DNA from: a virus
Direction: 5' to 3' (one strand)
Length of the DNA stretch: 64,000 nt
Virus record (IMG/VR): IMGVR_UViG_3300022690_000671
Coordinates: 15,948-79,947 of that record
The notes under the pieces are model-generated. The model ran no database searches and was not told the origin of the DNA. It was given only the letters and a program-made list of their open reading frames with translations. Positions 14,701 to 32,186 of the stretch are shown one piece after another. Numbering within the stretch: the first letter of the stretch is position 1; every line of letters starts with the position of its first letter. The translations under genes and the position numbers were made by a program.

Positions 14701-17700
14701 TGTTGTAGAAGGTGAGGAAGCTATTGAAGGCGAAGCCGCTGTAACACTAACCCGCGAACAATTCTTGGAGCGCTTAACGAACGAGGAAAATATTCGTCGT
14801 TTGGCTCAGAATCAGGCTAATTTAGAACAAAGAACAATTACCGTTCAGATAGATCCCGGTGCAGCGCCAGAGATCTTTACGCCTACGAAGCTACGTGTGC
14901 CTCGACCTGGTCCCGTAACGGAAGCGGAGCGTCAGGAGACCCTGGCAGAGGAACGTATCGCTCGGACGCGACAGCAGCAGCTACAGCGCGTGGAGGAGGC
15001 TGCTACGGTGGCGACGGAGGACCCGTTAACTGCTCTTCGAGAAGCCATAGCCAATCAGGACGTTAATCGTATAGCAGAAATTGTCGATATTAACCCAGAT
15101 GCGTTTGAAACTGCTGATCGACAAAGTCTAATAGAGGAAGCAGAAGAACAAGGTCCAGGTGTTGCGGCATTTGTAGAAAGTCAATTAGCCTTTCCTACGG
15201 AAGCGGTTGAACGTGAGCCTACTCAACTAAGAGTTCCGGTAACACCACAGGTAGATGTTCAGGAAGAAGCCGTACGCGCAGAATCAGCACAGCGTGTCTC
15301 AGAGCGTAATAAACTCGAAACACAACGCACAGAACTTATTAATCAATTTAACGCATCTGAACAATCTGTTCAGGACGCATTGGCCGCCTTTGATGAAAAA
15401 TTTCCAACTTCAACTTCAGCACAAATATTGCAAACTAAGACATCTTTGGAGCAAGGCGAAATACCTGCACCTCTCACAAGAGTCAACCGAAACAACACCA
15501 CGTTGGTCGCTGTTCGTGATGCTATTCAGCGGCTCAATGATGTAAACGATCAGTTAGAACAAGTTGAAACTACTATTGGTGATGTCGAAGGTCGTATGAC
15601 TGGTCTAGAACTCGCCGTAAGTCCAGAAGGCACTACCCCAGAAGAACGAGACGAAATAGCAGCAATTCAGGCGTTACGTCTAGATGAAAACCAGGAAGTT
15701 TCACTCATTCGTCAAGTGTTGGGGCGTCAGTTTGTGACTGATAAAGTCTCGTCAAAATCAGTTGTCGACACAGAAAACGGCACATTTAGGATTGATTTAT
15801 ATCAGGACTTCCGTAATCCCGGACAATCAATAGCTTTTGTTGAGGGCACAATCGTTGAAGATGGCGACGATCCTCATATGCAAATTACAAGTCGTGGAAC
15901 CGAACGTGGTTTCCGTGGTCGAGGGTTTGGTTCGCAACTTCTAGATGAGGCTTTTCAAGAAGCTACGTTCAGAAATATTCCTCTACGAAGCGACAACAAC
16001 GTTTCCGCAGCGGCAGTACGTACATTCCGACGCTTTGGTGAACAAAGCAACGTTGATCTGGTTCAGTCTGATAATACAACAGAACTTCCAGACGGATCTT
16101 TCTTCCTTGCGGGGGATAATCCTAATTACGTTTTCCAACTTACTGTCTCTAGTGACGATCCGCTCCCTCCGGACTTCTTTGGAGAAGACACGCCCCTGGT
16201 AGAAAACGTTGAAGAAGCCGAAGAACAATTCAATGAAGCTACTGCTACACCAGACGAGGATACGACACTGGAAACTGAAGAAAACGTAGTGCGTTTGCGT
16301 ATGGAAGACGAACTTCGTAAGACAAGTGTAGACTTGCAGGGTCCTATTCCATCTGTAGTACGTCGCGACGATCCCAAAGAAGGACAAGAAGATACTATTC
16401 CTGATGGTGTTCAAAGTAGCGAAGAATTTGCTCAATTCTTTGCCGATACCGTAAGAGCAGAAGATGGTGGGGCTCAAAATGTAGAGGATCCTCTTAATGC
16501 TTCGGTAATGGATACAGAAGAACACGAAAGTATTTACGAGACCTACGAAAGCTTTCAGGGTAATTTCGACACTCATATTTCAACCAGTATTCCTGGATTT
16601 GTTGACGCTCAAGTTCGTGTAGTAGATGCTCTAAGTAAAATACTTGAAGAAGGTTCCGAAGTGCTTGATATAGGCGCTGGGGAAAACACATTCCTCAAAA
16701 CGCTACAGGTAACAAGTAGAGCAAATGATCGAAGAATTGAAGGTTTAGGTATTGATTCATCAGCAGCTATGAGAGATGCGGCTAAGAAGCGTCGTGTTCG
16801 TGGAATCAGATTCCGACTAAGTGCGTGGGGCGAGTCTTTTGTAGATCCGGACACAGGACGCAGAGTTAAAGTGTTCGAGGCTGATGATGGAACATATGAC
16901 CTTGTATATGAGGGTATGACCTTTCAGTTCATTAGCGATGATCGCAGTGGGCAGTTAGATGAAGTTGTTCGTATAATGAAGGACGATGGTCTTTTTGTGA
17001 CGTTAGAGAAATTTAATCAACAAAATGAAGATACCTATTTCCAACAGGAAAAAGCCAAAGACGCATTTAAGCTCCTATTCTATGAGCAGAGTGATATAGA
17101 TACCAAGAAAAAAACTGTTCTTGGTAATGCCGCGTCTCGTGAAGGTATGCGTAGCAATATGGTAGATCAGACGACATTCGAGAATTTACTTCTCGACCGT
17201 TTTGAACATGTCGCCCAAATATGGTCATCTGGAAACTTCAGTGGCTACATTGCAACAAATGACAGAGCCAAATTCGATGCGTTTATTTCAAACCTAAGTT
17301 CGACGAATAGTGACTTTGCTGTTAAGCAAACGCCTCATTTAATAAGCGATAGCCCTGCCCAACGCGATGGACTTAATACTGCCCAGCGCACCCAGGAACA
17401 AGAAGTTGAAACTACATTACAAGGAACTCCTGTTGTGGCTCAATGGACCAAGCAAGAGACAGGGCGATACACACACGAAATAGACGGATCTGTTTGGGAG
17501 ATTAAACTAGAAGAGGGCGATTGGAACACAACTCGCGATGGCGTTTCAGTACTCGATCCTACTCGTACACTAAGAGAAGCTAAAACTCTGGTGTCAGAAG
17601 CTATTAATCTCACTCGTAATGATGCACTTCAAGATGATGGCGATTTGATTCAATTTAATCCTCTTAGTCTCCCTGATAATGTAGTCGTTATCGATACAAA

Positions 17701-20700
17701 CACTGATCTTTCGAGAGGTCATATAGGAATAAACGATAGTGACGAATATTTTGCGGACCACATGGGTCATGTTTTCCGTTCTCCTATTGGTAACAGTGTT
17801 GATGAAATTACTCATTATCGTAGAGGTGCGATACTTGTCGGAAAGGTCGAAGATGCAAAAGTAGGACAATTGTTAGACGAAAACAACGTGGAACCGGGCG
17901 ATATTGACGATATTGATCTTCTAGGTCATGAGGTTTGGTCTTCGCTTGTCGAACAACAAGGAGATACACCAGAACCATTAGCAATAGATCCTCTTGAAAT
18001 TACTGAGTTGGCCCTGCGTGGACAAAGAAGCTTCTTACTTGATCTAGGAGGTGAGTTACGTGGTCAATTTCAATCTCCCGGACTTAAAAAGGCTCTTCAA
18101 GCACTTGAAAGAAACGAACGCCCCCAAGAAATACGCTCCATAGCTGAAGGCAATGAGGAGTTAGAAGATTTCAACCGTAGACTCAAAGACTACGCTGCTC
18201 TATGGGATCAACGTGAGGCCATTTTGAACCCTATTACTCCTCTTCGCGATTCTCAGGGTAATCCTGATTGGGTAACAGCAGAGATTCTTATGTTAGATGA
18301 CGATATCAATGAGATCTCTATTGATGATGATAATACGGTTGTTGGTTTTGTTGAAAACGAGAATAGCGAAACGCTTTTTTACAGACGCAACCTCGCCGAT
18401 CAGTGGGAATCTGTAGAAGAGATCACGGAAGAAGAACATGGTAAGGCCCTAGAAGTCGCAGAGAAACGTTTGATGACTATGCGCAATGAAGGCACTGTTT
18501 TCACAATCAACGGCCAAGTTGTTGCAGATCTCAAAGTTCAATCTGCTTCGAAGAAACGTAAAACTGCTGAAACTGCTGCTATTAAAGCAGGGGAAAAGTA
18601 TAAGGGTAAGGCCGAGGCCGCACTAAGAGCGAAAGCTGAATTGGCGTTAAGTATTGTACCAGATGCAATGACTCCCAGCGGGGGACCTGCACTGCGTACT
18701 TTTGTGCGCTTGGTTAACGACTATAGAACTGACGTTGAATCCTATCTCAGGGCAGAAGATGCGTATCACGAGGCAAATATTGGTTTAGAAGAAAACCCTG
18801 AAGACGAGATTAATGACAACGGTCGTGGATTTCGTAGTTTCCGTAAGGACATAGAAGCATATTTCAGTGGTAAAGGTATTGCCATATTTGATGGTAAGGA
18901 TCCTTCTGATCTCGCGAATCGTAGTCTTCAAAAGATGATTCATCAGGAATCTATGGCGAGAGTGAGACTTGAAGAAAACACAACTGCCCCAGAACTAGAC
19001 GAAGAAATTCAACGTCAGATATCTGATGGTGTGGTTAGGGGTTTGAGTCTAACTGAAATTCTCAATGAACTACCAAAACAGAATCCTCAATCTGTTGAAA
19101 ATCTGTACAATGTATTAGCCTCATCCATAATTGGTGTTGATGAGGATATTGATTTTGAAGATCCTCACCTGGACATTAATGACATAGTATCGTATTCTAT
19201 GTCATCGCCATCGCCTCGTGTTCGTGAATCAAGAGCACGGCGCGTAATATCTTGGTTTAAACCTAGTACTCCTAATATACACCGTCGAAATGTTATATCT
19301 ACCTCGTTTCGTCGTCTCACATATCAAGCTGCGAAATACCCTGGCGCAGTGATGAATATTGCTCGTAAAGTGTATGCTTCTCCTGAAAAAAGATTAAGGG
19401 TAGGTGGAGTTCCTAGAACTTTATTTGAAGCAAGAGAATTCGAAGAAGAGAAATGGTTTACTAAATATCTTGATATTCAAGAAGATGCTGATAGGTGGAT
19501 GAAGAATAATGTTCCTATTGGAAACAGAGAAAAAGCATGGGGACGTATTGGTGCATTACAGCGTCAACCAAGTCTCGCAACTGCGACAGATCGCGATCAA
19601 GCATTATTGGGATTTGCAAATCAATTGCATAACCTGATGGAGAAATTTGGCAAATACTTGAGTGATGAAAAAAACGACGATTTCAACCTTCTTTCTGAAG
19701 CCCAACTTATCCAGTTTGATCCTGTAAAGGGAACGCGTTACTTTCCTCGTACCTGGAATGCTATGGAGATGGAGAGAAGAGAGTCGCAGTGGAAGGAAAT
19801 CCTTCGTCGACAATCGCTTCCTATTTTCCGTAAGCGCATAGAAGAAAAACGGAAGGAATTAAATGCCGAACTTCTTGAGGCTGAAGCTGATCTTCAAAAA
19901 GCAATAGATAAGGATTCTGATTCCAGAGCCTCAAAAAGAGGTAGAGACCTCGTCGATATCGTTAAAAATAATTTACAATCTCTTGATGGAACCCTTGACG
20001 AATTTATCGATCAAATATTCAATAAGATTACAAAGGGCGATACCTTTGCTTATGATAAGTGGTTATTTAGCGACAAGAGTCGTCTTATAAGGGAAATGCT
20101 TGATACTTTTCCTAATGCTCCTCGTGGTATCCACGCCAAACAGCGTAAGTTATGGTGGATAAACGAAAACGAATTTGCACAAGCTAATTTCTTGGCTGAT
20201 GATCCGCGTGATGCGTTACCTACGTATCTAAGAAACTTTATTCGTCAAAGAGAATATATTAGACGTTTTGGTCGCAGTAATCAAGAACTTGAGATTACTG
20301 CTAAGGAAATGGAAATTATCGGTAAGGCCAAAGGTTATGATTCGAAAACAATTAAAAGCGACATAGAAGAATTCAAACGAATAATGGAGGGTCTTGCCGG
20401 AGTCTTGCATATCGAAAATATTGCAAGATATCACGGTGCTGATAAAGTTATTCGTTTGAGTCATACACTATCTGTTATGTCCGCGCTAACCTTTACGGGC
20501 GTCACGTCATTTATTGAAACCGCTGCGATTCCTTTAAGATTTGGTTTTGAAGCAGCGGCGTTAGGACTTACAGCACTTCCTGGCTTTGCCAAGGAGAAAA
20601 TGGGTGTACCAGTAAGAGCCTTTATGAAGGGTATTGGTATTATGGTACCAAAACACTTTGGGCGTAGTCAAATTATGGAAATGGGTAGAATGGTGGCTGT

Positions 20701-21760
20701 TATTTCCCACCATACTATTAATACACTTATTGACGAACGGGCTCTTGGTTATGCTTTAGATGACACTCAACCCAACTCAAAAGCAGCTAAATATTCTCGC
20801 AAGTTAATTAGAGGATTTTATAAAATTAATTTAGTTGCTCCAATTACAGAACTTCAGAGAGTAATGTCGGCTGTAGCTGCTCAAAGACATATTACCAGAT
20901 TATTTCGTAAACCGCGCAGTAAACTAACTACCAGAGAATTGGATTTACTCGAAATCCTTAATCTTAAAAATGATTTTGATCGTCTCCGAGAAGTCTGGCG
21001 CTCAAATAAAGCAAATTTGTTCAGAATTCGCGAACGTGAAAGTCAAGAAGATTTCGAGACGTTTCAAACAGCCATTTATCGTGCAGTTAATCAGGCAATA
21101 ACGAAACCCAACGCAGCAACTAAACCTGTCTGGGGTAATAGTCTTGATCCCATTCTTCAGGCAGTATATTCTTTGAAAAGTTTCTCTGATGGTTTTAGAG
21201 AAGGTGCCTTTGCTTTTTGGCTTGACCGTATGAGAAATGGAGATTGGCCCGAAAAATTCTCTATGATGGTGAGATTTTTAAATTTATTATTTGTTTCTTG
21301 GCTCACTGAATCGATCATTCGACCTGGAGTAAAAGTAATACTTGGTGCAGATGCTCAAGAACTAAAAGAAAGGGAAGAAAGAACAGGAAGACTTCTCAAC
21401 GCAATTGCTGTAATAGATAAGACAGGATTTACAGTACAAGGCAGTAACTTTCTTGGTGCATTTTATGCCTCTAAATATGGACGATCTCCTGAATCAGGTG
21501 TCGTAGGGCCTGGAGTAACTGCTGTGTCAGATGTTGCCAAAGGATTTTACGTTTCGCTTGATAGAGGCGACCCTGCTTTTTTATGGAATGCTTTGTACAA
21601 TAGCTACGTTCCAGGAGCAAAACTTCCATTCCTCAAAGATTTGGCAACCATCGAACCGGGCAAGTTTAAAGTTGATGTTCCGGCCCTACTTGGTATCGAA
21701 AAGGAATCTACTGGAGGTGGTCGACGCCGTAGTAGAACACGTCGTAGTAAAGAACGTTAA
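11708..21760 (+). CDS. Giant polyvalent internal virion/DNA-ejection protein with GNAT and class I SAM-methyltransferase-fold (CmoA-like) domains
   Basis: 3350 aa with Gly/Ala-rich hydrophobic segments near the N-terminus. GNAT motif A (FRGRGFGSQLLDEAF, ~15900). MTase motifs FDTHISTSIPGF, VLDIGAGE, GIDSSAAM, FQFI, LEK, IWSSGNF (~16550-17260). Confidence 0.75.
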   Translation: MENQELLDLLQAIIDRQPEGPADIARPQDEAAAPEPLEILPQPGVSTAEQLAAAPEPLEILPQPGVSTAEQLAAATTQEEADILERRVSEERFQETASLQDFLRRKSEGPLTRVTGPREVQEEDNPVVALLGAIDKRTQEDEGFFNDLLSGLSEGSRIVVSDAARNFGFQDFANRLEETAPRERTTTPAAAIGRAIVGGTKFFIEGGLSLALGPVLGGSSLEEQFGFDPGEQRDILDEIRQVKTRPDDFTEEQVTDLVNRRDAALRNTQIFEARQILSELTPEGTGIDDFLEGFERSKFTILANVAAAFGDIDDFETANRLREIASTEQFDAQSAYATAGEIGAQSIPSAAALLIGGPVAAGLMGAFYFTQGLGSGRTVYRDIKEKTGEEVKFIEEMTLGIGFGLAEMLTERFGLKVLENISTKLAFELGEKALLTQIRKGTLTQAQIVAMSKWTVATMGAEAYEEAVNSVAQTTMISMFDPETGVMDQGLWDFTKDLTEDALISAAGGALGGGFVGPAARFRGRQNIRNARRELNEASDDELFNVLQDENVNEGIRGVAEEIFNSRLAGQAPTVDGARLPTPQMTPEFREEFTAAANEASSADLQRGLLDGRFTGEQTDIIIGILEQKPSEEAPVRFGPERVREQRRRFAETLEEAERLGQPVEELEPRVGIRTQVPGTERIVRPGAVLEGAIDIEAARQGAEIVDAEEAVVNQENAIQIFNSFIDATNLVEEEKTRFKNAIILADVAGRRGTEEELRSRGILSGDPGSPVITIGDQTYEGDTAKEMLGTFRIGAVTVGSKDQLRNIFLLANVDETDVRDEIFHAFMDFAPGEVKRDAINAFNEEFDTTFKTYSEGRERMAREFANHLGGIRRTERGGFLRGLFDTHNRAWRQTINPFKRGDVAEQVQTGAFTDLLLKIGRGEVADLVQPGIVEEIVEEAAEPQEAEIRQVINEDSDRRADVLREIEEEGRPFGIGEVAFQALARGEPTATFFAEPGVVEGEEAIEGEAAVTLTREQFLERLTNEENIRRLAQNQANLEQRTITVQIDPGAAPEIFTPTKLRVPRPGPVTEAERQETLAEERIARTRQQQLQRVEEAATVATEDPLTALREAIANQDVNRIAEIVDINPDAFETADRQSLIEEAEEQGPGVAAFVESQLAFPTEAVEREPTQLRVPVTPQVDVQEEAVRAESAQRVSERNKLETQRTELINQFNASEQSVQDALAAFDEKFPTSTSAQILQTKTSLEQGEIPAPLTRVNRNNTTLVAVRDAIQRLNDVNDQLEQVETTIGDVEGRMTGLELAVSPEGTTPEERDEIAAIQALRLDENQEVSLIRQVLGRQFVTDKVSSKSVVDTENGTFRIDLYQDFRNPGQSIAFVEGTIVEDGDDPHMQITSRGTERGFRGRGFGSQLLDEAFQEATFRNIPLRSDNNVSAAAVRTFRRFGEQSNVDLVQSDNTTELPDGSFFLAGDNPNYVFQLTVSSDDPLPPDFFGEDTPLVENVEEAEEQFNEATATPDEDTTLETEENVVRLRMEDELRKTSVDLQGPIPSVVRRDDPKEGQEDTIPDGVQSSEEFAQFFADTVRAEDGGAQNVEDPLNASVMDTEEHESIYETYESFQGNFDTHISTSIPGFVDAQVRVVDALSKILEEGSEVLDIGAGENTFLKTLQVTSRANDRRIEGLGIDSSAAMRDAAKKRRVRGIRFRLSAWGESFVDPDTGRRVKVFEADDGTYDLVYEGMTFQFISDDRSGQLDEVVRIMKDDGLFVTLEKFNQQNEDTYFQQEKAKDAFKLLFYEQSDIDTKKKTVLGNAASREGMRSNMVDQTTFENLLLDRFEHVAQIWSSGNFSGYIATNDRAKFDAFISNLSSTNSDFAVKQTPHLISDSPAQRDGLNTAQRTQEQEVETTLQGTPVVAQWTKQETGRYTHEIDGSVWEIKLEEGDWNTTRDGVSVLDPTRTLREAKTLVSEAINLTRNDALQDDGDLIQFNPLSLPDNVVVIDTNTDLSRGHIGINDSDEYFADHMGHVFRSPIGNSVDEITHYRRGAILVGKVEDAKVGQLLDENNVEPGDIDDIDLLGHEVWSSLVEQQGDTPEPLAIDPLEITELALRGQRSFLLDLGGELRGQFQSPGLKKALQALERNERPQEIRSIAEGNEELEDFNRRLKDYAALWDQREAILNPITPLRDSQGNPDWVTAEILMLDDDINEISIDDDNTVVGFVENENSETLFYRRNLADQWESVEEITEEEHGKALEVAEKRLMTMRNEGTVFTINGQVVADLKVQSASKKRKTAETAAIKAGEKYKGKAEAALRAKAELALSIVPDAMTPSGGPALRTFVRLVNDYRTDVESYLRAEDAYHEANIGLEENPEDEINDNGRGFRSFRKDIEAYFSGKGIAIFDGKDPSDLANRSLQKMIHQESMARVRLEENTTAPELDEEIQRQISDGVVRGLSLTEILNELPKQNPQSVENLYNVLASSIIGVDEDIDFEDPHLDINDIVSYSMSSPSPRVRESRARRVISWFKPSTPNIHRRNVISTSFRRLTYQAAKYPGAVMNIARKVYASPEKRLRVGGVPRTLFEAREFEEEKWFTKYLDIQEDADRWMKNNVPIGNREKAWGRIGALQRQPSLATATDRDQALLGFANQLHNLMEKFGKYLSDEKNDDFNLLSEAQLIQFDPVKGTRYFPRTWNAMEMERRESQWKEILRRQSLPIFRKRIEEKRKELNAELLEAEADLQKAIDKDSDSRASKRGRDLVDIVKNNLQSLDGTLDEFIDQIFNKITKGDTFAYDKWLFSDKSRLIREMLDTFPNAPRGIHAKQRKLWWINENEFAQANFLADDPRDALPTYLRNFIRQREYIRRFGRSNQELEITAKEMEIIGKAKGYDSKTIKSDIEEFKRIMEGLAGVLHIENIARYHGADKVIRLSHTLSVMSALTFTGVTSFIETAAIPLRFGFEAAALGLTALPGFAKEKMGVPVRAFMKGIGIMVPKHFGRSQIMEMGRMVAVISHHTINTLIDERALGYALDDTQPNSKAAKYSRKLIRGFYKINLVAPITELQRVMSAVAAQRHITRLFRKPRSKLTTRELDLLEILNLKNDFDRLREVWRSNKANLFRIRERESQEDFETFQTAIYRAVNQAITKPNAATKPVWGNSLDPILQAVYSLKSFSDGFREGAFAFWLDRMRNGDWPEKFSMMVRFLNLLFVSWLTESIIRPGVKVILGADAQELKEREERTGRLLNAIAVIDKTGFTVQGSNFLGAFYASKYGRSPESGVVGPGVTAVSDVAKGFYVSLDRGDPAFLWNALYNSYVPGAKLPFLKDLATIEPGKFKVDVPALLGIEKESTGGGRRRSRTRRSKER
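11798..11931 (+). repeat. Perfect in-frame 63-bp tandem repeat (2.1 copies; AAAPEPLEILPQPGVSTAEQL)
   Basis: Identical units at 11798-11860 and 11861-11923. Confidence 0.95.
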
Positions 21761-22775: not shown

Positions 22776-23018
22776 TTAAATTTCGAAGTAGTTGTCCCAG
22801 ACAAAGTTTGGTGAAATACTATATGGCTTACTGCCATCTTCAGGATAAGCTACATAGTATCCACCATGCCAGTCGTCGACAGTCTCGGGCGATATCAACA
22901 TTTCTCCTTCCTGAGTTTCGACCGTGAAAGGTTCATTGATAAAAGCGAGAGCCACTATTGTCTTCTTTCTGTGTGAAACAAGATTTTCGGGCCTGTTGTC
23001 GAGTGTAAACGTTGCCAT
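22776..23018 (-). CDS. Hypothetical phage protein (PGDYG-like)
   Basis: FTVETQEGEM...GGYY...KPY...F...Y pattern; AGGAG RBS. Confidence 0.55.
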   Translation of the reverse strand: MATFTLDNRPENLVSHRKKTIVALAFINEPFTVETQEGEMLISPETVDDWHGGYYVAYPEDGSKPYSISPNFVWDNYFEI

Positions 23019-23078
23019 GATGTATTATCTCCTAGTTGGTGAGTGTGTTATCTATCATACGACATTCAGATAGATTTG

Positions 23079-24707
23079 TTACGTTTTCCCAGTCATTAAA
23101 TCAGCAGCAGAAGGTTCGGTCGAGATCATTCCTAGTTCCCTCCGAACATCCGTATAATCCTGTTTAAGGATCTTAGTAATAGATGCTTCGCTTACATCGT
23201 GATCTTTGGCTATTTTCTTTTTACCACCTTTCTGACGAGGAACATAGTTATCCTGGATAGAGATCTGCTCCCAAACGTTAAGTCTTGCAATCTCTAAATG
23301 TTGGTATTTGGTCAAGATCAAAATCTCGGCCTCAAACGCTTCACTATCTTCCTCTTTAATGAGACTGGGACGTATGCCTTTCCGTTCAAGGGCTTTGAAA
23401 CGATTCTTGTCGAATATAGGCCCGGTGCGTTTTTGCCACTGAGTAAGTGTGAGACAAGACTGGAAACCGATGAAATGTTCATCGAGCAACACGATCTCTT
23501 TGGCTTGAAAGGATCTACCATCTTTAGGAACACGGAGAATGATTGCGACTTCGATAGGTTCCCACGGGACTTCATCAAAGATGTCGAAGGCCACATATTT
23601 TTTTTCTTCTTCATAGGCAAAGACATATGCAGCTAATTGTAAATAGTATTCCGGCCAAATCCTTTTACTAGATTTCCAGTCTACCATTGCTAATCTACCA
23701 TCGACATAGGCTAAGAAGTCGAAGGTTCCAGAATAATTGTATTTGCGGCTATATACTTTGCGTTCTGTATGGATAGGAATAACGTCGTGATTTTTCCACC
23801 ACTTGGTAAATGCAATAATGGCAGATTCGGCCTCGTCATTGTCAGGTAATTCGGGATAAAGTGACGGATTATCCTCAGTTCCACCCAACACTGAAATTTT
23901 AACCTTGATAAATTTTTCTATCCATTCATGAACGATATGACCTATATCTCCAGCCTTTTCCAGAGTAACGTTTCTTGCCTTTTCGGCAGTTTGTAGCATT
24001 GCTTCCCATTGAACTTTATCGTAGTACAATGTAGGATCTACGTGATCGCGAAGCCAATTGGTCGTCTCTTTCACGGCCCACGGAATAAGACCCGGTTTAT
24101 TGACTATTCGAGTAATGGATGTAGTTGAGGTTACTAGCTCTCCCGTAGATTCCAATCGATACTGATGAGAATCGTCATCATATAGTAGTACAACTTCTCC
24201 ACCATATAAGACGTGTCGTTCTGCTTGATCTTTATTAAACTCAGGAATATATTCCGTCCGAGCCCACACTCTCATTTTTTCTATACCATCTATTAACCAT
24301 TCATAAGATCTACCATCAATTCGATCTCCAGAATATACATAGTAATGATCAAACGGAAGTTCCGACTCGGCCAATAGCTTCAACAACTCCTCAGTCTGTT
24401 TGACCTTGTTGAGTATTGCTATCAGAATGCTTTTCTGAAATCCTCCGGGATTGCGTCTAGATTCATTGTCGGTCATTATTCGACCAACACGTTTAGCCTC
24501 ATAGCCGTGAAGATTCATGAGTTGGTCGCGATCAGGATGAGAACTACGCAACCAGTACCAATATCCTTCTATACTACGAAAAGCACCGTCTGGACAAATG
24601 AACGGAGCGTCAGCAAAGTTCGACATCCATTGACCTATAGCAGTGTTACCTTTACTGTATATGTTGATATGATCGACGCCATCGTTCTCAGGTAAGAAGG
24701 TGCTCAT
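23079..24707 (-). CDS. Fusion of an N-terminal NADAR-like domain and a PD-(D/E)XK phage exonuclease
   Basis: N-terminal MSNFADAPF..DG.F.SIEGYW resembles T4 gp30.3-type NADAR. C-terminal STTSI, G..VHEWIE, E.KVYS..Y.YSGTFD, VDWKSS and LQLAAY are nuclease motifs. Confidence 0.75.
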   Translation of the reverse strand: MSTFLPENDGVDHINIYSKGNTAIGQWMSNFADAPFICPDGAFRSIEGYWYWLRSSHPDRDQLMNLHGYEAKRVGRIMTDNESRRNPGGFQKSILIAILNKVKQTEELLKLLAESELPFDHYYVYSGDRIDGRSYEWLIDGIEKMRVWARTEYIPEFNKDQAERHVLYGGEVVLLYDDDSHQYRLESTGELVTSTTSITRIVNKPGLIPWAVKETTNWLRDHVDPTLYYDKVQWEAMLQTAEKARNVTLEKAGDIGHIVHEWIEKFIKVKISVLGGTEDNPSLYPELPDNDEAESAIIAFTKWWKNHDVIPIHTERKVYSRKYNYSGTFDFLAYVDGRLAMVDWKSSKRIWPEYYLQLAAYVFAYEEEKKYVAFDIFDEVPWEPIEVAIILRVPKDGRSFQAKEIVLLDEHFIGFQSCLTLTQWQKRTGPIFDKNRFKALERKGIRPSLIKEEDSEAFEAEILILTKYQHLEIARLNVWEQISIQDNYVPRQKGGKKKIAKDHDVSEASITKILKQDYTDVRRELGMISTEPSAADLMTGKT

Positions 24708-25705
24708 ATCTGTAACCCCGCAAATTCTTTGAGAGAAATTGGAAACCCAGCAGAAGAGAAATGCCCCCCACCACCGAGAGATTTAGCTAATTTGCCTACG
24801 TCGTATAAAAGACCCTCCTTGCGACTACGAAGATTGAAAATTACGTTTTCGTCTCCTGTAATGAAATAGCTCATGGTAAAGGCCCACTCTGAATGAAGCG
24901 CCAAAGCGGCGTGGTGGGTTTCAGAAATGGTGTGAGAAAGATTCGCCAGTCCGTATGGGATACTATCCTTTATACGTTCTTGGGCAGTGAAAGTTGCGGC
25001 TTGTTGCTCTGCGATCATATCTCGATAGAGAATCATTGCTTTGCCTTGTTCAAACAATCTAGGATAATATGGACCAACGTAACTTATTTGATTTGGTTTT
25101 TCTTCATATAGATTTTTCAAAGCTTTAAATCCGTACTTATGAATGTACGATTCCAAAGCTATTGTGTATTCGTCAGTATAAGGCAACTCCCAATTCCATA
25201 GATCTCTATCCTCTATGTGGAGTAGAATAGGAGGAATAGGTTCAATACTTATGTTAAGAGGAACATAACCATTCCAATAGTACCAGGCCAGTGTTGCCGC
25301 ACTATGATCTGGAGCATATACCCATTTAAAATTGTTACCTTTGTCCGTTGCAGTAATAACGTAAACAGTTCCCCAATCATATTCTGATCTCGTCTTATTA
25401 CCACGCTCTACAGTATTAAAAAATTCTTTAAATGCATCGAATCCATACTGGTGATGATCGATAACTGTCACAGGAACGTGGAGATTGAAGAGTTGTTCTG
25501 GAGGGTAAACCCAGTCGAGGACCACTAATTCCTTTGTGTCATGAGGCAGTTGTGGTACAATCTTTCGTGATCCTCCCATGTGACCCGTCGAGAAAAATGC
25601 CAATTCCGTGTTCAAGTATTGTCTACACCACCACCAGGTGGCATATGCAGCGCCCACACCATCCAGGTCGTCGTCGTGTAGTATTACTACTTTGTGGTTT
25701 TTCAT
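24704..25705 (-). CDS. DHH/DHHA1 family phosphoesterase
   Basis: HDDDLDG, VLD, IDHH, EDRDLW, LRS, GGGGH..AG motifs. Confidence 0.9.
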   Translation of the reverse strand: MKNHKVVILHDDDLDGVGAAYATWWWCRQYLNTELAFFSTGHMGGSRKIVPQLPHDTKELVVLDWVYPPEQLFNLHVPVTVIDHHQYGFDAFKEFFNTVERGNKTRSEYDWGTVYVITATDKGNNFKWVYAPDHSAATLAWYYWNGYVPLNISIEPIPPILLHIEDRDLWNWELPYTDEYTIALESYIHKYGFKALKNLYEEKPNQISYVGPYYPRLFEQGKAMILYRDMIAEQQAATFTAQERIKDSIPYGLANLSHTISETHHAALALHSEWAFTMSYFITGDENVIFNLRSRKEGLLYDVGKLAKSLGGGGHFSSAGFPISLKEFAGLQI

Positions 25706-26322
25706 GATGACGTTAGCTGTTTAATTTCTTGAAATATTTCCTCAACCTTAATCCATAGACCCGACATAGTATGGTTATTGTCAATGACATAGTCCCATTT
25801 GTTAAAATCATCCAAGGCGATTTCCGAACGATGTTGATTGTCTCTTGCTGTATCAACACCTTCACCTCTAAGTCGCTCCGAGGCATCCACCTTGATCAAT
25901 ACGCCGCCCATATCTATAATCATACGAGCTTCGTTAGGAAACCGAACATCAGATATAACAACGTGCTGAATGGATGAAAGGTCGATAATTTTCCTCTTAA
26001 CGTTTAATGCCCAGATGTTCGCATGGACACGGTTACGAAAAATATCAGTTCCGATGAACTGAAGAAGCCAAGTTACTGTTACATCCCGACCAAAGACGGC
26101 AGACCAAAAAGGAAGAACATCCAACTTCCGGTCGTCAAACATGATCGCTGGATCAAGACAAAATGCAGCAGCCGTAGTTTTTTTCAAAGCCTCGGCAAAT
26201 GATAGGCTAACGAAATCTAGACCTTGTTCTCGGCCCAGTTCCACAATCATTTCGGCAACGGTATCTTTTCCGTGCCTGGCCTTATGGCCTATACCTATAA
26301 TGAGTCTTTCTGGATTAGGCAT
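25702..26322 (-). CDS. Deoxynucleoside monophosphate kinase
   Basis: GHKARHGKDT, SFAEALK, LLQFIGTD..R, ISDVRFPNE, H.SE, IDN motifs. Confidence 0.9.
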   Translation of the reverse strand: MPNPERLIIGIGHKARHGKDTVAEMIVELGREQGLDFVSLSFAEALKKTTAAAFCLDPAIMFDDRKLDVLPFWSAVFGRDVTVTWLLQFIGTDIFRNRVHANIWALNVKRKIIDLSSIQHVVISDVRFPNEARMIIDMGGVLIKVDASERLRGEGVDTARDNQHRSEIALDDFNKWDYVIDNNHTMSGLWIKVEEIFQEIKQLTSS

Positions 26323-26920
26323 ATGATACCTCCTGCATTTTCTTTTTGAGTTGTTTGAATCGTTTCATAAAGGAAAACATCGCCATCTTGGAGTCCATCG
26401 GAAAGATAGTAACATCATCATACGGAGGATGATTCGTATATTTAGAAATATCGTACCAGGGATGAAGGTCTCGACGTTCCGTGGTGTAGATGCGATAGTC
26501 TACCTCCTTCATCTCATCATGGTGTATCGTCATAGTTTCATGTATACCAAATTTTTGTTCTATGACGCGTTGCATATTAGCTGCAATTTCTTTGTAACGA
26601 GGCAATAGAGCTTTCAATGGAGACGGCAAATCTTGCATATATGCTTCATGAGCATCATGTAGCAAGAAACCCATTGCTTTCCAGGGATCTTTAAACTTTC
26701 GACTCCCTAGAACACTGTGTTGTGAGACGGAATAATGCCAACTCGTTTGACCCGTGAACCTGGCAACATTGCTAAGACCAGTGGCGATATCTTGAATACG
26801 GAACATGTCTTCTGTAGGGCTCAGATAATCGATCTTAATCCCTGAGTTGGACATGATCGATGTTTTGGCAACAACTAGATCTACTCGCTCATCTTCGATA
26901 TTCTCTAAATTGCGCTCCAT
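26315..26920 (-). CDS. HD-domain phosphohydrolase (YfdR/YfbR-like 5'-deoxynucleotidase)
   Basis: DIA.GLS..ARF.G, YSVSQHSV, LLHDAHEAY..D.PSPLK. Confidence 0.9.
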   Translation of the reverse strand: MERNLENIEDERVDLVVAKTSIMSNSGIKIDYLSPTEDMFRIQDIATGLSNVARFTGQTSWHYSVSQHSVLGSRKFKDPWKAMGFLLHDAHEAYMQDLPSPLKALLPRYKEIAANMQRVIEQKFGIHETMTIHHDEMKEVDYRIYTTERRDLHPWYDISKYTNHPPYDDVTIFPMDSKMAMFSFMKRFKQLKKKMQEVSYA

Positions 26921-26937
26921 GATATCATCAGGTATGG

Positions 26938-27399
26938 TTATGAAGGTTTGAGATTGTCAAGATCTACTCCGGGAATCCCTTGTGATAAAGCAGCTTTGGT
27001 TATTCTATTTTGTTGTTCTCGGACAAATGTTTCAACTTCGTCGACGAATTCAAGTCGAGCATTGGCCCATGCTTCGTGCCAAATCACTTCATCTAGAATA
27101 GTAAATTGTTGAGAATATACCATGAATCGTGCAATAGCATTGTATAAATCAATAAGGGTATCACGATGAACGTCAGAGACTTCTTCTACACGACCCAGAT
27201 CAGTGTCGAGACTTATCTCAAATATATCAGCAGCAACAATGGAAATCTTAGCAACACTTTGCATCAACTGTACCAGTTGGCGCTTATCTCCATAGATCTG
27301 CATGGCAATTTTGACAAGTTCAGGATAGGCCCCAACGCGATCATATTCGTCGTCTTGATTTTCTTCTTGTGGTGTCTGATTTCCCTGGTCTTCGGTCAT
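26938..27399 (-). CDS. Hypothetical protein
   Basis: 153-aa helical ORF. Confidence 0.55.
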   Translation of the reverse strand: MTEDQGNQTPQEENQDDEYDRVGAYPELVKIAMQIYGDKRQLVQLMQSVAKISIVAADIFEISLDTDLGRVEEVSDVHRDTLIDLYNAIARFMVYSQQFTILDEVIWHEAWANARLEFVDEVETFVREQQNRITKAALSQGIPGVDLDNLKPS

Positions 27400-27584
27400 G
27401 AGTTTGTAGTAGATTTAGGTTGACATTTACTCCTACGAACAAAGCTTCTAATCTTGACGGCTTCGTCTCTCATAGGTCGTATTTGATGAGTAGACCATCC
27501 TCCGTCGACAGATTCGTCGGCCCATACTTCTAATTGCTTTGCCACTTCTAATAGCTTTTCATGTGGAGTCATGATTTCTTCCAT
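27396..27584 (-). CDS. Hypothetical protein
   Basis: 62-aa ORF with a 4-bp overlap with the downstream gene. Confidence 0.5.
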   Translation of the reverse strand: MEEIMTPHEKLLEVAKQLEVWADESVDGGWSTHQIRPMRDEAVKIRSFVRRSKCQPKSTTNS

Positions 27585-27993
27585 TATGTTTCGATAGCTA
27601 TACGGTTAATTTCTGCTTGATAAGACGACATCTGTGCTCGTGCTTGTGCCGCGTACGGGTGGAGGAACGCTGTATGCGACGAGATTAATGACGAATAAGA
27701 TAATGCCGCCCGGAAAAGTTGGTCGCTCTGGTTGCGTTGTTGTTCTCCAAGCTTGTCAACGTTAACATCGACTTTATCTCTCCAAAGCTCTTCTTCGCTC
27801 CAAGGTTGATCATATTTTACGTCTATACACCAATCCTTATCTTCATCATATTTTATATACCATCCTCTAACAATTAACTATATGAACACGATGCCAAAAA
27901 CACCTCCGAAAACAACATGTATGAAAAGTAGCAACGATAAGAATATAACAGCCAATAGACTACCTATAACTTCATATGTTTTTTGGTTCAAAA

Positions 27994-30900
27994 TCATAAC
28001 GTCCGATGTTTTTTTGGTGGAACCAGGGATACGTGAACTCGCATACCAGCCTTTTTGGCGGTTTCTATCATATCCCTGGTTCCTCTTGAAGTTCCGTTCC
28101 ATACGGCAATAAGAGCAGCGCCATTCTTTCCAATAGAAGACATGGCCTTTTCCGCCATAAGTTGATTACGGTTATGCCCCGCCAAAGCATTGTATGGTAC
28201 TCCTAAAACGTTGCGTTTCATAAGAACGTTATCTACTTCGAAATTGTTCCATTGCGCCGCTTCTTCATGGTGGTCGATTCCTTCTCTAACTGCATATTCC
28301 TTGGCCGCAGCGTCAACTCCCTTAGCCCCGCCCTGAATAATTTTGGCAATAACATTACCAGAGGGATCACTATCGGCCTTTTCTATTAACTTCAAAAAAG
28401 GAGCCCCCGCAATGGCGCGTTCTATCCAAAAAATATCATTTATGTCACGCCCCCCTGCTATGATAACTTGCATAGGTTTACGTTTCACATCGCGTTGGAC
28501 AATCTCTATGCTATTATAATCGAAATCAGGATCCGTTTGTTCACTAAACAACATACGCCATCCCTCTTCAGTAAAGAATATCCCGAACTTCTTCGCGGAG
28601 TCCATGAGTTTCTTTAAATACCAGTTCGTGTTTTCGTCTGGATTGTCAGGATCGTGTTCCTCGGCCCATTTGCTATGTTGAAAAGCACGTATCTTATACA
28701 CCTTCATTTCCTTGGGCGCGGCGCAATAGTGAGCAAAGCGGTCGCCTACCACCACCTTGTGTTTCCCCGATTCGTGTATTCTCTTGGCGACCTCATATCC
28801 AGCATCAGCGTTGCGTCCTCCGTTTCCAACGCCTAGTTTTACCTTCTTGTCGTAGAGACTCAGCGGATCCTTAACTGTGCTGCGTTTACAAAACTCGTCA
28901 ATTGTCCAGTCGGACGTAAAGACTTTTGTCCAATACCTCGTGTAAATTTCATGTACCTTTACAGGATCTCTTTCCAAAATGGCTGTGATGATCTCTACTA
29001 CGAACTCACGACGAAAAAGTTCGATCACGCGGCTCTTGAAGCTACCGCCTTTAATCTTTAGCCGACCCTCAACAAGAGCGTAATTCTTCTTACGTAACGA
29101 AAGCATAGAAGTTGCTCTTCCATCGAAACCAACTACGATTCCTGATGGCATACGTTTTGTCAGAGACTCAACCCAATCCCTGTCTCCCATAGGAAACGGT
29201 CCCTTGATATCATGTTTTAATTCAATAATGGCGACCGCCTTACCTTCTGGATGATCCTGGTTGTATACCCATTTAGGAGGAATACAAAGTGTTCCGTCCG
29301 TATTCTTACAGAGAATTCCACCTACTCCACCAACAAATGTTCCGTCTTCTGTAGAAATATCATAAACATCTAATCCTGTCTTTCTTTCAATCAAAGCTCT
29401 AACTTCACTTGACTCATATTTTATCCGCCGCGTTCCAGTAAGAGTGCCCAAACGTACAATTGTTTCTTTATCTTTTCTAACATGTACATTAATTCTATGA
29501 GATAACTCCAGATCTCTCATCAACCACCACATCCCAGCAGCAAGTATGTGAGACTTTGTTGTATATTGTCCAGTACCGTCTTTATAAAAATGACCATCTC
29601 CCTTCATAGCTCCGTCAAAAAAACCATGTTTCATTTCTTTTGATCCGTTCAAGACAACGGAAGGAACTTTCTTTTGATGAGTTGCTTCATCATAGAGAAG
29701 ATTATTCCATATATTATATTGTATTATATTGTAACCGCCAGTTGCTTTATTACATCCTGTGGATTTCATTGTATCGTAAACCATCATCCTGGTTCTATAG
29801 TATTTAAACGCAAGATCACAAACAAGTTGAAGCAAATCCTTATCTTTTTCGGCGCACGATACATTCGTCGACCAACCATTTGGTTTTCTTGAAACCCTGG
29901 ACGTAGAGCCTTCTGCTACCATAATACCCAGGAGCCAACCGTGTTCATAGTCTCCTTCTTCGTTGTTCGGTAAAATAGGCAAATCGATAATCTCAAGTTT
30001 ATCCCCTATAATCAAATCACGGGGTTTAACCATTTCTCCATCTTCACGAAAAAGGCTATGATCTTCAGTTACAACAACAGTACCACACATTGTTCTGACT
30101 TCAAGCATACGTTTATCTGTATTGTGACGCTTAGTATATTTGATAGGTTTCCATCCCGATCTAGTTAAGACTTCTATTCCATCATATCCATCAAAACGAC
30201 GTAATTCGTCCGAATCATGAAGAGTAGCTATAGACACAACATCAATATCATCGCCGCGACGTATGTAAACAGGTGTATAAGCAGCAACAGAGTCACAAGC
30301 TATAGGTTGTCCTCCATCTTTAATGATTTCACGAAGCATCTTTTTAAGAAGACCCTGACCTATGGTACATACACGATCTGCTTGAATAAAATCATTAAAA
30401 ATAAAGAAGTTAAAACCAAGTGCGCCATACATCGAGTTGCCTTGTATTTTATAAGCCGCTTGTTTATGATCTAACGACTCGTGTTCTTTCTTTCTACCTG
30501 TCAGAGGTTTACCATTTAAATCTTCTAAGGCTTTCATCTCGGCCTTAGTCGCCAAACGTAAATCTGTCAACTCTCTTAAAATCCTTGGGAACGTATTTAA
30601 CGTGTCGGTTGACGGTTTTACATCATAGTTGAGCATAATACTTGGATACAGAGACTCGACATCTGCATAAACTATGTTCTCGTAGACTCCTATTTTGAAT
30701 ATATCAGTATAACCACCAACTTCCATTCGACCCGCCTTGAATGTTGGTATGCTATGTCGTTTTTCCAGATATTCCCTTACCATGATGTGTTCTACCTTAG
30801 TTGCAGAACCTCCTCTGGCTATACGCTCATAGGTCATTGGAACCATCTGGCTCAACGCAAAATGACTTCCGCCGAGATGTTTACCAATGGATCTGGTTTC

Positions 30901-31932
30901 ATATACATCGTCTAGAGCATAACGCAGTACACGTTCAGGGTCTTCGTCCCAGGTCTTTGCTATTTGATCTCCCTGGATGTATTCACGATTTTCTGAGGCA
31001 AAACCAAAGTATTTAGCTGCACCTTTCAGGGTGTGATCTTGCATCGATCTTTTAACTACGTCAAACGCCAATACCAAGAAATATGTATCTATGATGTGTC
31101 TCCCAGCTATAGTCCAGGCCGGGTATTCTATCTGGCGTTCAGCGAAACGTATTTGTGTATCATAGAATGTGGGAACGGATCCGTCTCGTCCTATGTTAAC
31201 CTCGATACCATAACGTTCGCACCTGGTCATCAGGTAAGGCATATCGAAACTCAGGAAGTTGTGGCCCTCGATAATGTCGGGGTCCAAAGCTTGAATGGTT
31301 TCGACCCATTCTTCCAACATTTCTTTTTCGGTATCAAACCTAATTGAATCTTTAGTGTGAACACCTTTTGGAGCAATATGAAAAACAACATCAAATCCTT
31401 TATTATCACACATAGATATGATAAAAATCTTATCGGTTTCTCTGGAAGCGTTAGGAAAACCTACCCTGCTATATGCCTCAATGTCGCACTGAAGACGATG
31501 GACATCATCAAACCCCCTGCCCTTAAACATGGTATTACCAGTCTGCATAAGCCACTGAGACTCAGCAGATGCGATCATGTAGATCTCTTTACGTTTCCAT
31601 TCCCTCGTTTTAAGATTCTTAAGCACTTGTTTTTTAGCTCCCCACATCTCAAACCAGTTGTTAAACACAACAAGCACCTGGTAATAGTTGTCGCCCTCAA
31701 GATTTACCCAACGATACTGTTCGCGAGGAAAGTTATTGAGAAGATTAATATCTTTGAGCCAGAAAAACGGATAAAAGTTTTCCAAAGTGAATTCTGTACG
31801 ACCAATATGATTATTCCACACCTGCATCTTGTTACCATCAGGATGCATCGCCAAACCGACAATACCCTGTCTGTCAGACTTACCGTAGAGTAGTGCAGAT
31901 TGTATAGGGTCGTCTTTTAATTCCACTCTCAA
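27994..31932 (-). CDS. polB: Family B DNA polymerase with 3'-5' exonuclease, intein and C-terminal SLOG (YspA/DUF2493-like) domain
   Basis: Exo I DIE, Exo II GHNFLSFDMPYL, Exo III YALDD; motif A DVESLYPSIM, motif B K...NSMYG, motif C ACD|TDG split by the intein, KKNY. C-terminal IIAGGRD...IQGGAKGVD...AGHNRN..MA...WNGTSRGTRDMI. Confidence 0.93.
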   Translation of the reverse strand: MRVELKDDPIQSALLYGKSDRQGIVGLAMHPDGNKMQVWNNHIGRTEFTLENFYPFFWLKDINLLNNFPREQYRWVNLEGDNYYQVLVVFNNWFEMWGAKKQVLKNLKTREWKRKEIYMIASAESQWLMQTGNTMFKGRGFDDVHRLQCDIEAYSRVGFPNASRETDKIFIISMCDNKGFDVVFHIAPKGVHTKDSIRFDTEKEMLEEWVETIQALDPDIIEGHNFLSFDMPYLMTRCERYGIEVNIGRDGSVPTFYDTQIRFAERQIEYPAWTIAGRHIIDTYFLVLAFDVVKRSMQDHTLKGAAKYFGFASENREYIQGDQIAKTWDEDPERVLRYALDDVYETRSIGKHLGGSHFALSQMVPMTYERIARGGSATKVEHIMVREYLEKRHSIPTFKAGRMEVGGYTDIFKIGVYENIVYADVESLYPSIMLNYDVKPSTDTLNTFPRILRELTDLRLATKAEMKALEDLNGKPLTGRKKEHESLDHKQAAYKIQGNSMYGALGFNFFIFNDFIQADRVCTIGQGLLKKMLREIIKDGGQPIACDSVAAYTPVYIRRGDDIDVVSIATLHDSDELRRFDGYDGIEVLTRSGWKPIKYTKRHNTDKRMLEVRTMCGTVVVTEDHSLFREDGEMVKPRDLIIGDKLEIIDLPILPNNEEGDYEHGWLLGIMVAEGSTSRVSRKPNGWSTNVSCAEKDKDLLQLVCDLAFKYYRTRMMVYDTMKSTGCNKATGGYNIIQYNIWNNLLYDEATHQKKVPSVVLNGSKEMKHGFFDGAMKGDGHFYKDGTGQYTTKSHILAAGMWWLMRDLELSHRINVHVRKDKETIVRLGTLTGTRRIKYESSEVRALIERKTGLDVYDISTEDGTFVGGVGGILCKNTDGTLCIPPKWVYNQDHPEGKAVAIIELKHDIKGPFPMGDRDWVESLTKRMPSGIVVGFDGRATSMLSLRKKNYALVEGRLKIKGGSFKSRVIELFRREFVVEIITAILERDPVKVHEIYTRYWTKVFTSDWTIDEFCKRSTVKDPLSLYDKKVKLGVGNGGRNADAGYEVAKRIHESGKHKVVVGDRFAHYCAAPKEMKVYKIRAFQHSKWAEEHDPDNPDENTNWYLKKLMDSAKKFGIFFTEEGWRMLFSEQTDPDFDYNSIEIVQRDVKRKPMQVIIAGGRDINDIFWIERAIAGAPFLKLIEKADSDPSGNVIAKIIQGGAKGVDAAAKEYAVREGIDHHEEAAQWNNFEVDNVLMKRNVLGVPYNALAGHNRNQLMAEKAMSSIGKNGAALIAVWNGTSRGTRDMIETAKKAGMRVHVSLVPPKKHRTL
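29302..30291 (-). mobile_element. Intein (330 aa) with LAGLIDADG endonuclease in PolB motif C
   Basis: Starts SVAAYTPV; block B VTEDHSLF; LLGIMVAEGS and FFDGAMKGDG; block F VYDISTEDGTF; ends LCKN followed by Thr. Confidence 0.92.
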
Positions 31933-31973
31933 CCTCCCTGCTGTTGATTGGCTTGTATTAACTTATATACAAC

Positions 31974-32186
31974 TTAGAGCGGGAATTTGTTTCGTGTTCG
32001 TTCATTCTTCAAATAAGGAAAACGAAGTTCCATGATATGTGTTAACTCTAATATCCAATTATAGACGTTCATATAACACCCAAATTTCGTAGTTCTATGT
32101 ATGGCAGCGCCAAGTTCAGTTGCTCGACACTCTAACCATAGGTCATATGGCATAATACCGCGTGGTGGTCTCTTCTGTTCTGACAT
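31974..32186 (-). CDS. Hypothetical protein
   Basis: Likely start MSEQKRPP immediately after the upstream stop. Confidence 0.5.
   Translation of the reverse strand: MSEQKRPPRGIMPYDLWLECRATELGAAIHRTTKFGCYMNVYNWILELTHIMELRFPYLKNERTRNKFPL

Follow-up and report, generated by a model that had tools for sequence, protein, structure and literature searches.

NADAR and SLOG, two common phage accessory domains, fused to an exonuclease and a PolB polymerase in the replication module of an uncultured marine-sediment phage

Introduction

SLOG proteins of the YAcAr family are very common in phages, where PHROG-based annotation carries them as a 'GTP-binding domain', and phage NADARs have only recently been shown to erase guanine ADP-ribosylation of the DarT1 type. 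Here we analyse a window of 64,000 nucleotides, the right-hand 64 kb of the 79,947-bp linear IMG/VR virus record IMGVR_UViG_3300022690_000671 (~66% complete by CheckV), which stems from an uncultured tailed phage of a marine sediment metagenome and in which a domain of each kind is fused to a DNA enzyme: a NADAR to a PD-(D/E)XK exonuclease (NADAR::exonuclease) and a SLOG to a PolB polymerase (PolB::SLOG).

All phage NADARs assayed hydrolyse guanine-linked ADP-ribose (ADPr) on DNA (PMC11257639), and phage T4 gp30.3, or AdfN, is a NADAR that counters DarTG1 (PMC11257639, PMC11125620). Viral SLOG, NADAR, Macro and DUF4326 domains are found together and in fusion with one another (PMC9503650). Elsewhere in the SLOG superfamily, the antitoxin ShosA binds both single-stranded DNA (ssDNA) and RecA and needs ssDNA binding for its function (PMC12961424), and the ssDNA-binding motifs of DprA have been defined by Wang et al. 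as G-S/T/A-R and F/L/Y-x-x-R-N/D (variant A-M-x-R-N/D) and contrasted with the LOG motif PGGxGTxxE (PMC3950713).

In the locus described here, two common phage accessory domains are welded onto DNA enzymes, and both fusions are real. In the literature searched, which did not include the founding SLOG classification paper, we found no description of a SLOG or NADAR fusion to PolB or to a PD-(D/E)XK nuclease. The reading that we tentatively favour is that the NADAR would be a DNA de-ADP-ribosylase delivered by its exonuclease and the SLOG a DprA-like binder of ssDNA or of a nucleotide. On this reading, the two fusions would be separate solutions to one need, accessory activities at the ssDNA of the fork, and not halves of one obligate system.

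A NADAR domain on a PD-(D/E)XK exonuclease

The locus (31932-23079) lies entirely on the minus strand, and its two fused open reading frames (ORFs), NADAR::exonuclease at 23079-24707 (542 amino acids, aa) and PolB::SLOG at 27994-31932 (1312 aa; 1310 aa in the gene call on the record, which begins two codons later), are 3.29 kb apart. A first-pass annotation of the window had described two replication enzymes ~3.3 kb apart, each with an extra domain and with DHH, deoxynucleoside monophosphate (dNMP) kinase and HD genes between them, and had named the extra domains NADAR, on the exonuclease, and SLOG, on the last ~160 aa of PolB. Coordinates and families agree with this layout, and the structural and profile searches reported below lead to the same two domain names.

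The N-terminal domain of the exonuclease protein (aa 4-151 of 542; 24255..24698, minus strand) belongs to phrog_652 (E 2.6e-40), an unannotated family whose members, free-standing proteins of ~150 aa, occur in 571 cultured phage genomes. The Pfam NADAR family PF08719 has no match at E<=1 in the whole record, and PF08010 (Phage_30_3) scores 14.5 bits on the domain, below its cut-off of 36; given these weak or absent Pfam scores, the fold was tested directly. With an AlphaFold model built from an alignment of 37 homologues (AF2; predicted local distance difference test, pLDDT, 91), Foldseek returned only three significant matches, E. coli YbiA (2b3w) and the Phytophthora and Geobacter NADARs (8bau and 8bat), each at a probability of 1.00, and VIA gave Z-scores of 12.4 for 2b3w (root-mean-square deviation 3.5 over 140 aligned residues), 11.6 for 8bau and 8.7 for 8bat, with the next chain at 3.2. 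The family profile also matches 8bau by sequence (E 0.003) and T4 gp30.3 in hhalign (probability 83%, E 9e-6). Profiles were needed for such matches, as single-sequence phmmer searches of the PDB with the NADAR or the SLOG domain returned nothing.

Residues invariant in the family include N30, F31, E47 and H121. E47, invariant in the 37 homologues, aligns with the Glu of 'SSEQYF' in 8bau; the catalytic Glu of NADARs lies in an S-x-E motif and is E43 in the P. nicotianae enzyme and E88 in E. coli C7 NADAR (PMC11543638). The equally invariant H121, in the motif 'LPFxHYYVY', stands at the start of the last strand (residues 122-125), at a position that is Glu in YbiA, Asp in DarG1-type NADARs and His in phage NADARs (PMC11125620, PMC11543638). 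As modelled, the domain is an intact phage-type NADAR of the His type, in a separate sequence subfamily (phrog_652) that is joined to the described NADARs by fold and profile only.

A RecB/Cas4-like PD-(D/E)XK exonuclease domain follows at aa 161-447 (23367..24227, minus strand; PF12705, 27.8 bits against a cut-off of 22; phrog_298, E 7e-31), with the motifs D330, D343-W-K345 and Q357xxxY361. The protein ends in a tail of ~95 aa (aa 448-542 and the stop codon; 23079..23366, minus strand) that no Pfam or PHROG match covers and that, like an intein in PolB, was overlooked in the first-pass annotation. The tail of a homologous exonuclease, P0123, is different and rich in Cys and His.

When the NADAR::exonuclease was used in a near-length, word-indexed search of 5.8 billion clustered proteins, it retrieved itself alone at full coverage; a word-indexed search for PolB::SLOG likewise returned the window protein alone and missed three relatives that HMMER later found, so that blanks from this index are weak evidence. 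P0123, the closest exonuclease (46% identity), stands alone, and its residue 3 aligns with residue 157 of the fused protein; look-alikes in the ESM Atlas are likewise exonuclease-only and align from about residue 155. Within the reach of these searches, the fusion is a one-off, unique to this contig.

A singleton whose nearest exonuclease begins at the junction, and which comes from one sample, raises the question of an artefact, or of a very recent and neutral loss of the stop codon between adjacent genes. Either is very improbable. Logan's separate assembly of the same run contains the region in a 13.5-kb contig at a depth of 40.6, which matches 23000-32000 without a difference or a gap, and this identity of two assemblies at ~40x shows that the fusions are not an assembler quirk. 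Furthermore, the linker is short and in frame, both domains retain all family-invariant residues, and an analogous fusion of a NADAR with a PolB fragment (P0125) exists elsewhere. The Logan assembly derives from the same sample and is hence not biologically independent; among the sequencing runs listed, a single sample, and no RNA run, carries the locus. In a second sediment sample of the same study, short low-depth contigs are ~90% identical to 23214-23396 and 26748-27068, which indicates that a related strain exists; these fragments cover neither fusion junction.

A YAcAr SLOG domain on PolB

In the alignment with the PolB of a Salinibacter phage, homology stops at aa 1133 of the window polymerase; a 20-aa linker (aa 1134-1153) leads from there into a YAcAr-family SLOG domain at aa 1154-1312 (27997..28473, minus strand; phrog_289, E 3e-20). 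Its PF10686 score, for which the cut-off is 28.2 bits, is 32.2 for the domain by itself, 34.8 in the scan of the genome and 25.2 when the whole 1312-aa protein is scanned. Invariant family residues are G1160, R1162, G1201, G1205, D1207, W1228, R1255, N1256 and G1284. For a model built from a 60-sequence alignment (AF2 pLDDT 92.7), the leading Foldseek matches are, in this order, DprA, ShosA, H. pylori DprA and YpsA, and nearly all of the top 24 VIA rows (Z 10.9-7.7) belong to the SLOG superfamily, namely the Moco carrier, ShosA, YpsA, DprA, ThsA and LOG. By profile and model, the C-terminal domain of this PolB is an intact YAcAr SLOG.

The best PDB sequence matches of the SLOG profile are DprA proteins (E 0.0075-0.013). 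When the domain is aligned with E. coli Smf by hhalign, G1160-G-R1162 falls on G-S-R, 'GGAKGVD' on 'SGLARGID' and R1255-N1256 on the R-N of F-P-R-R-N. Across the 60 homologues, both Arg residues and the Asn of these DprA-like motifs vary little or not at all; the middle and first motif residues differ. The family thus appears to keep the two motifs that bind ssDNA in DprA, with the caveat that the Smf alignment is weak (27%). Taken together, the DprA best matches, the DprA motifs and the need of ShosA for ssDNA favour a DprA-like pocket that would hold an ssDNA nucleotide.

The same pocket could instead belong to a nucleotide-processing enzyme, or to a sensor of the deoxynucleoside triphosphate pool or of a modified base, that works with the dNMP kinase, the dNMP phosphatase, the DHH protein and MazG encoded nearby. 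Members of the LOG clade cleave the N-glycosidic bonds of nucleotides, the gene block is rich in nucleotide-metabolism genes, and the invariant pocket residues (R, D, W, R-N and S/T) resemble a ligand site. We nevertheless regard such a role as distinctly unlikely: the LOG catalytic motif PGGxGTxxE is absent, the family consensus reading G-x-S-x-G-T-x-D-M, with neither Pro-Gly-Gly nor the final Glu, and the partners to which the domain is fused elsewhere are DNA-tracking enzymes and not enzymes of nucleotide metabolism.

Origin and spread of the fusions

When 1.84 billion representatives were searched exhaustively by HMMER with the SLOG domain as query, three more PolB::SLOG proteins came up, P0132 (1009 aa), P0133 (1051 aa) and P0134 (937 aa), which rank directly after the window protein and above all stand-alone SLOGs. 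Each carries the PolB exonuclease and polymerase domains together with YAcAr and aligns end to end with the window PolB at 44-48% identity, and none contains an intein. A tree of 75 PolB cores unites the four fused polymerases in one clade with a support of 1.0. Identity among them is 44-49% in the SLOG, 44-61% in the linker and 43-50% in the PolB core, and the residue that precedes the SLOG is Met, Leu or Ile depending on the lineage and so is not a leftover start codon. With SLOG and linker as conserved as the polymerase core and a single clade, we infer an old fusion kept by selection; on this sequence evidence, PolB::SLOG is an ancient architecture of single origin. Scans of IMG/VR with the N-terminal half of PolB, with a PolB alignment and with P0132, P0133 and P0134 gave no useful relative, and a metagenome scan returned unfused PolBs only. 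The 10-kb flanks of 160 unfused PolB relatives, mostly on Rhodothermales, Chlorobiales and Bacteroidota chromosomes, hold no SLOG, NADAR or exonuclease of the present kind; as these PolBs are unfused, they say nothing about co-occurrence within the fused clade.

Beyond PolB, both domains recur in other fusions. A NADAR joined to a YAcAr SLOG occurs four times, with a phrog_652-type NADAR in P0035, P0126 and P0127 and with a PF08719 NADAR, which the NADAR subfamily profile does not match, in P0254; several further proteins fuse NADAR to DUF4326. P0125, a 364-aa protein from an NCBI metagenomic contig of 4,045 bp, combines a NADAR of the phrog_652 subfamily (aa 1-145) with a PolB fragment that runs from motif C ('NCDTDAI') through the thumb; the fragment resembles the C-terminal part of a polymerase that has been split, with the NADAR at the point of division. 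The SLOG is furthermore fused to an RNase_T/DnaQ-type exonuclease in P0199 and to a Pif1-like helicase both in P0243, a nine-member metagenomic cluster, and in the cultured Pseudoalteromonas phage H101 (KR534323, 2723-4486), in which a YAcAr SLOG (E 1e-45) forms the C-terminus of a 587-aa product annotated as '5' to 3' DNA helicase-like protein'. Vibrio phage 424E50-1 probably encodes the same helicase::SLOG architecture. This network, as read from sequence, fits the finding that NADARs work on ssDNA lesions, and it suggests that replicating DNA is where the two accessory domains act.

The network also bears on a different view, in which NADAR and SLOG degrade or sequester soluble ADPr derivatives, such as Thoeris signals of the cyclic ADPr (cADPR) type or by-products of RNA repair, and fusion merely secures early co-expression. 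Published work predicts such a role for viral NADAR and SLOG proteins (PMC9503650, PMC7824862); moreover, the SLOG of ThsA, which binds 3'cADPR, is among the structural matches (Z 7.7-9.3), and the phage also encodes an RNA ligase. We consider it unlikely nonetheless. Co-expression does not require covalent fusion, and this view explains neither why linker and SLOG are conserved at the rate of the polymerase over four lineages nor why the partners are repeatedly DNA enzymes (PolB, Pif1-like helicase, DnaQ-like exonuclease and PD-(D/E)XK nuclease); repeated and independent fusion to DNA-tracking enzymes is hard to explain by soluble-signal processing alone. In addition, the phage NADARs assayed all act on guanine-ADPr in DNA (PMC11257639), and the DprA ssDNA motifs appear to be kept.

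The first-pass annotation had joined the two fusions into one replisome-coupled system against ADP-ribosylation, in which the SLOG of PolB senses or binds ADPr on the template, the NADAR of the exonuclease erases it and replication passes the modified DNA. Several observations speak for such coupling: NADAR and YAcAr SLOG are fused together in at least four unrelated metagenomic proteins, a Rosetta-stone hint; the two co-occur in DNA viruses above chance (PMC9503650); DarT toxins modify ssDNA (PMC11543638); and both fusions lie here in one co-directional block. The histories of the two fusions differ, however, PolB::SLOG being old and shared and NADAR::exonuclease unique. The 132-kb genome of H101 has the helicase::SLOG and no NADAR of this type, and in Salmonella phage GG32 a distance of 89 kb separates the stand-alone genes for NADAR and SLOG. 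ADPr binding by this SLOG clade is moreover conjecture; its closest solved relatives by sequence profile and Foldseek, and its conserved motifs, point to ssDNA binding of the DprA type and not specifically to ADPr. We therefore judge a single coupled system to be improbable. The domain calls of that annotation stand, as does the background on which it drew, the action of T4 gp30.3 against DarTG1 and the association of viral SLOG, NADAR, Macro and DUF4326 domains; its ADPr-binding SLOG and its double fusion as one tethered system are not supported in that form.

The intein-bearing polymerase and its genomic setting

The PolB N-extein (aa 1-547; 30292..31932, minus strand) comprises the 3'-5' exonuclease domain and the palm as far as the first Asp of motif C ('PIACD'). 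It matches PF03104 (E 3e-18) and PF00136 (E 7e-16), both above cut-off, and phrog_262 (E 1e-66), and motif A is present as 'DVESLYPSIM'. When the window polymerase is aligned with the 801-aa PolB of a Salinibacter phage (38% identity), its closest relative in culture, similarity breaks off at motif C and resumes 330 residues on. The intervening 330 aa (S548-N877; 29302..30291, minus strand) are an intein with a LAGLIDADG homing endonuclease, seated between the first Asp and the Thr of motif C (D/S...N/TDG, with slashes at the junctions), whose excision restores C-D-T-D-G in register with the 'IE(A/V/I)DTDG' of intein-free relatives. It has the features of a class 1 intein, with an N-terminal Ser, a C-terminal Asn followed by Thr (the +1 residue T878), an endonuclease domain and a conserved insertion site; its penultimate residue is Lys, not His. 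The endonuclease matches PF14528 just under the cut-off (E 4e-4), and its best PDB sequence match is the PolB intein endonuclease PI-PkoII (E 8.7e-7). Of the 160 related cellular PolBs, four (L011, L119, L137 and L171) likewise contain inteins, some at about the same place. The C-extein (aa 878-1133), which with the linker occupies 28474..29301 (minus strand), supplies the rest of the palm and the thumb.

The nearest unfused relatives of this PolB (40-50% identity) are chromosomal and belong to Rhodothermales, Rubrivirga, Chlorobiales and other members of the Bacteroidota group, complete chromosomes included; others are found in Salinibacter phages. The chromosomal relatives are a hint, at the level of sequence similarity, either to the lineage of the host or to the acquisition of PolB from a cell.

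Downstream of PolB::SLOG, a 409-bp non-coding gap (27585..27993) separates the polymerase from a block of six tightly packed genes (27584-23079) with start/stop overlaps of 4-8 nt, encoding in order a 62-aa ORF, a 153-aa ORF, the HD protein, the dNMP kinase, the DHH protein and the exonuclease. The single operon of the first-pass annotation is thus supported for this block only. The gap contains no ORF with a match and no Rfam match, and a promoter and terminator scan of it stayed at chance level. The two small ORFs (26938..27584, minus strand), which complete the tight block, have no Pfam or PHROG match. The HD-type deoxyribonucleoside 5'-monophosphate phosphatase (26315..26920, minus strand) is assigned by phrog_318 (E 8.5e-55) with a weak YfbR-like Pfam match (E 0.012), and the dNMP kinase (25702..26322, minus strand) by PF21448 (46.8 bits against a cut-off of 27.1, E 4e-12) and phrog_139 (E 7e-43). 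The DHH-family phosphoesterase gene (24704..25705, minus strand), the stop of which overlaps the exonuclease start by 4 nt, matches phrog_4771 (E 3.4e-37), with Pfam DHH and DHHA1 matches under their cut-offs.

Farther upstream on the minus strand are genes for MazG, SSB, a PrimPol::DnaB primase-helicase, an RNA ligase and an RNaseH-like protein, neighbours that mark the locus as a phage replication module, one that also serves nucleotide metabolism. The primase-helicase is one 756-aa protein (40750-43020, minus strand) with an N-terminal PrimPol domain and the N- and C-terminal helicase domains of DnaB. On the plus strand, a 3350-aa ORF occupies 11708-21760; a tblastn search of 50,697 phage records with its first 1000 residues gave no match. 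No Macro, DUF4326 or canonical NADAR was found in the rest of the 79.9-kb record (~66% complete), and the 8.9-kb stretch of the locus has no megablast match in cultured phages.

Discussion

We tentatively propose that the two accessory domains would serve the ssDNA of the replicating phage genome in separate ways. By analogy with every phage NADAR tested, the NADAR domain would be a DNA ADP-ribosylglycohydrolase that strips ADPr from guanine, where DarT1-like toxins of the host would have placed it on ssDNA, and its fusion to the exonuclease would bring it to places where phage DNA in replication has ends, gaps or resected ssDNA. The SLOG would be a DprA-like module whose conserved pocket holds an ssDNA nucleotide, possibly a modified one, and would thereby anchor the polymerase to the single-stranded template; in the fusions found elsewhere it would do likewise for Pif1-like helicases, for DnaQ-like exonucleases and for NADAR itself.

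Several points weigh against this proposal. The NADAR role of the phrog_652 subfamily is predicted from fold and profile, the Pfam families being below threshold (PF08010, 14.5 against 36 bits) or without a match (PF08719). The position of the phosphate-binding Lys, seven residues after the Glu (K50 in the P. nicotianae NADAR, K95 in E. coli C7 NADAR), is R54 here and varies in the subfamily; the K95R mutant of the C7 enzyme keeps its activity in vitro (PMC11543638). On the side of the SLOG, VIA Z-scores do not separate DprA from the YpsA, ThsA, LOG or Moco-carrier clades, and the hhalign probability to Smf is just 27%, with a single-sequence template. Furthermore, the NADAR::exonuclease fusion rests on a single sample, no DarT is known to confront this phage, and the published prediction for viral SLOG and NADAR proteins is action on soluble ADPr derivatives (PMC9503650).

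A bolder version, which we consider doubtful, would have the YAcAr SLOG read damaged or ADP-ribosylated nucleotides of the ssDNA template, with a flipped base or adduct in its DprA-like pocket. Together with the NADAR it would form a fork-travelling repair pair, with the reader carried by the polymerase and the eraser by the exonuclease. Docking between the two domains may also occur, as is suggested by the proteins in which they are fused together.

The conservation of the SLOG at the level of the polymerase core, together with the independent fusions of SLOG and NADAR to helicases, exonucleases and a polymerase fragment, offers a testable lead: the target of both domains would be ssDNA at the fork rather than soluble signals. 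If true, this would change the role expected of a domain that is present in hundreds of cultured phages, and it would provide a natural construct with which to probe a coupling between the repair of ADP-ribosylated DNA and replication.

Among described NADARs, those closest in expected activity are T4 AdfN (gp30.3), NADAR-Bas32 and NADAR-Bas60, which have in common with the window domain the YbiA-like fold, the catalytic Glu and the His of the last strand and by analogy would act alike. AdfN and the other known phage NADARs are stand-alone proteins, whereas the window NADAR is fused to a nuclease and belongs to another subfamily (phrog_652), linked to gp30.3 by profile alone (E 9e-6). NADAR-Bas60 was considered as a possible member of phrog_652; its primer-encoded N-terminus is unlike that of the window NADAR. 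DarG1 likewise shares the NADAR fold and the Glu equivalent to E88 of E. coli C7 NADAR, but it has a catalytic Asp in place of the His, and the window NADAR lacks the basic N-terminal extension proposed to bind ssDNA. DarG1 is associated with DarT1, whereas no darT gene lies near the window NADAR, for which the exonuclease would supply DNA targeting.

The viral NADAR, SLOG, Macro and DUF4326 proteins of Iyer et al. 2022 (PMC9503650) contain the same two domains, which recur in large phages and are often mutually fused; there the domains are joined to one another and predicted to act on soluble ADPr, whereas here each is joined to a core replication or recombination enzyme. With DprA/Smf and the DprA-like antitoxin ShosA, the window SLOG shares the Rossmannoid fold and, as far as the weak Smf alignment shows, apparently the R of G-S/T/A-R and the R-N of x-x-x-R-N, the residues that in DprA hold a nucleotide of ssDNA. 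Unlike them, it comprises only ~160 aa, without SAM or winged-helix domains or a known surface for dimerisation or RecA binding; a hairpin insert with an invariant Trp is specific to its family, and its Pfam family is YAcAr and not DNA_processg_A. The SLOG of ThsA (Thoeris), of the same superfamily, is a documented binder of an ADPr-derived ligand, with Z-scores no better than those of other SLOG clades; it is an effector-activating sensor in host defence, whereas the window SLOG is a polymerase appendage.

As for the polymerase, its intein shares with those of Thermococcales PolBs (PI-PkoII) the LAGLIDADG type, the location in the active-site region of a polymerase and the Ser/Asn/Thr splice pattern, but it resides in a phage polymerase, has Lys and not His as its penultimate residue and is only remotely similar (E 8.7e-7). 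Finally, the Pif1/Dda-like helicase::SLOG of phage H101 bears the same YAcAr SLOG at the C-terminus of a DNA-tracking replication enzyme, the partner there being a helicase and not a polymerase.

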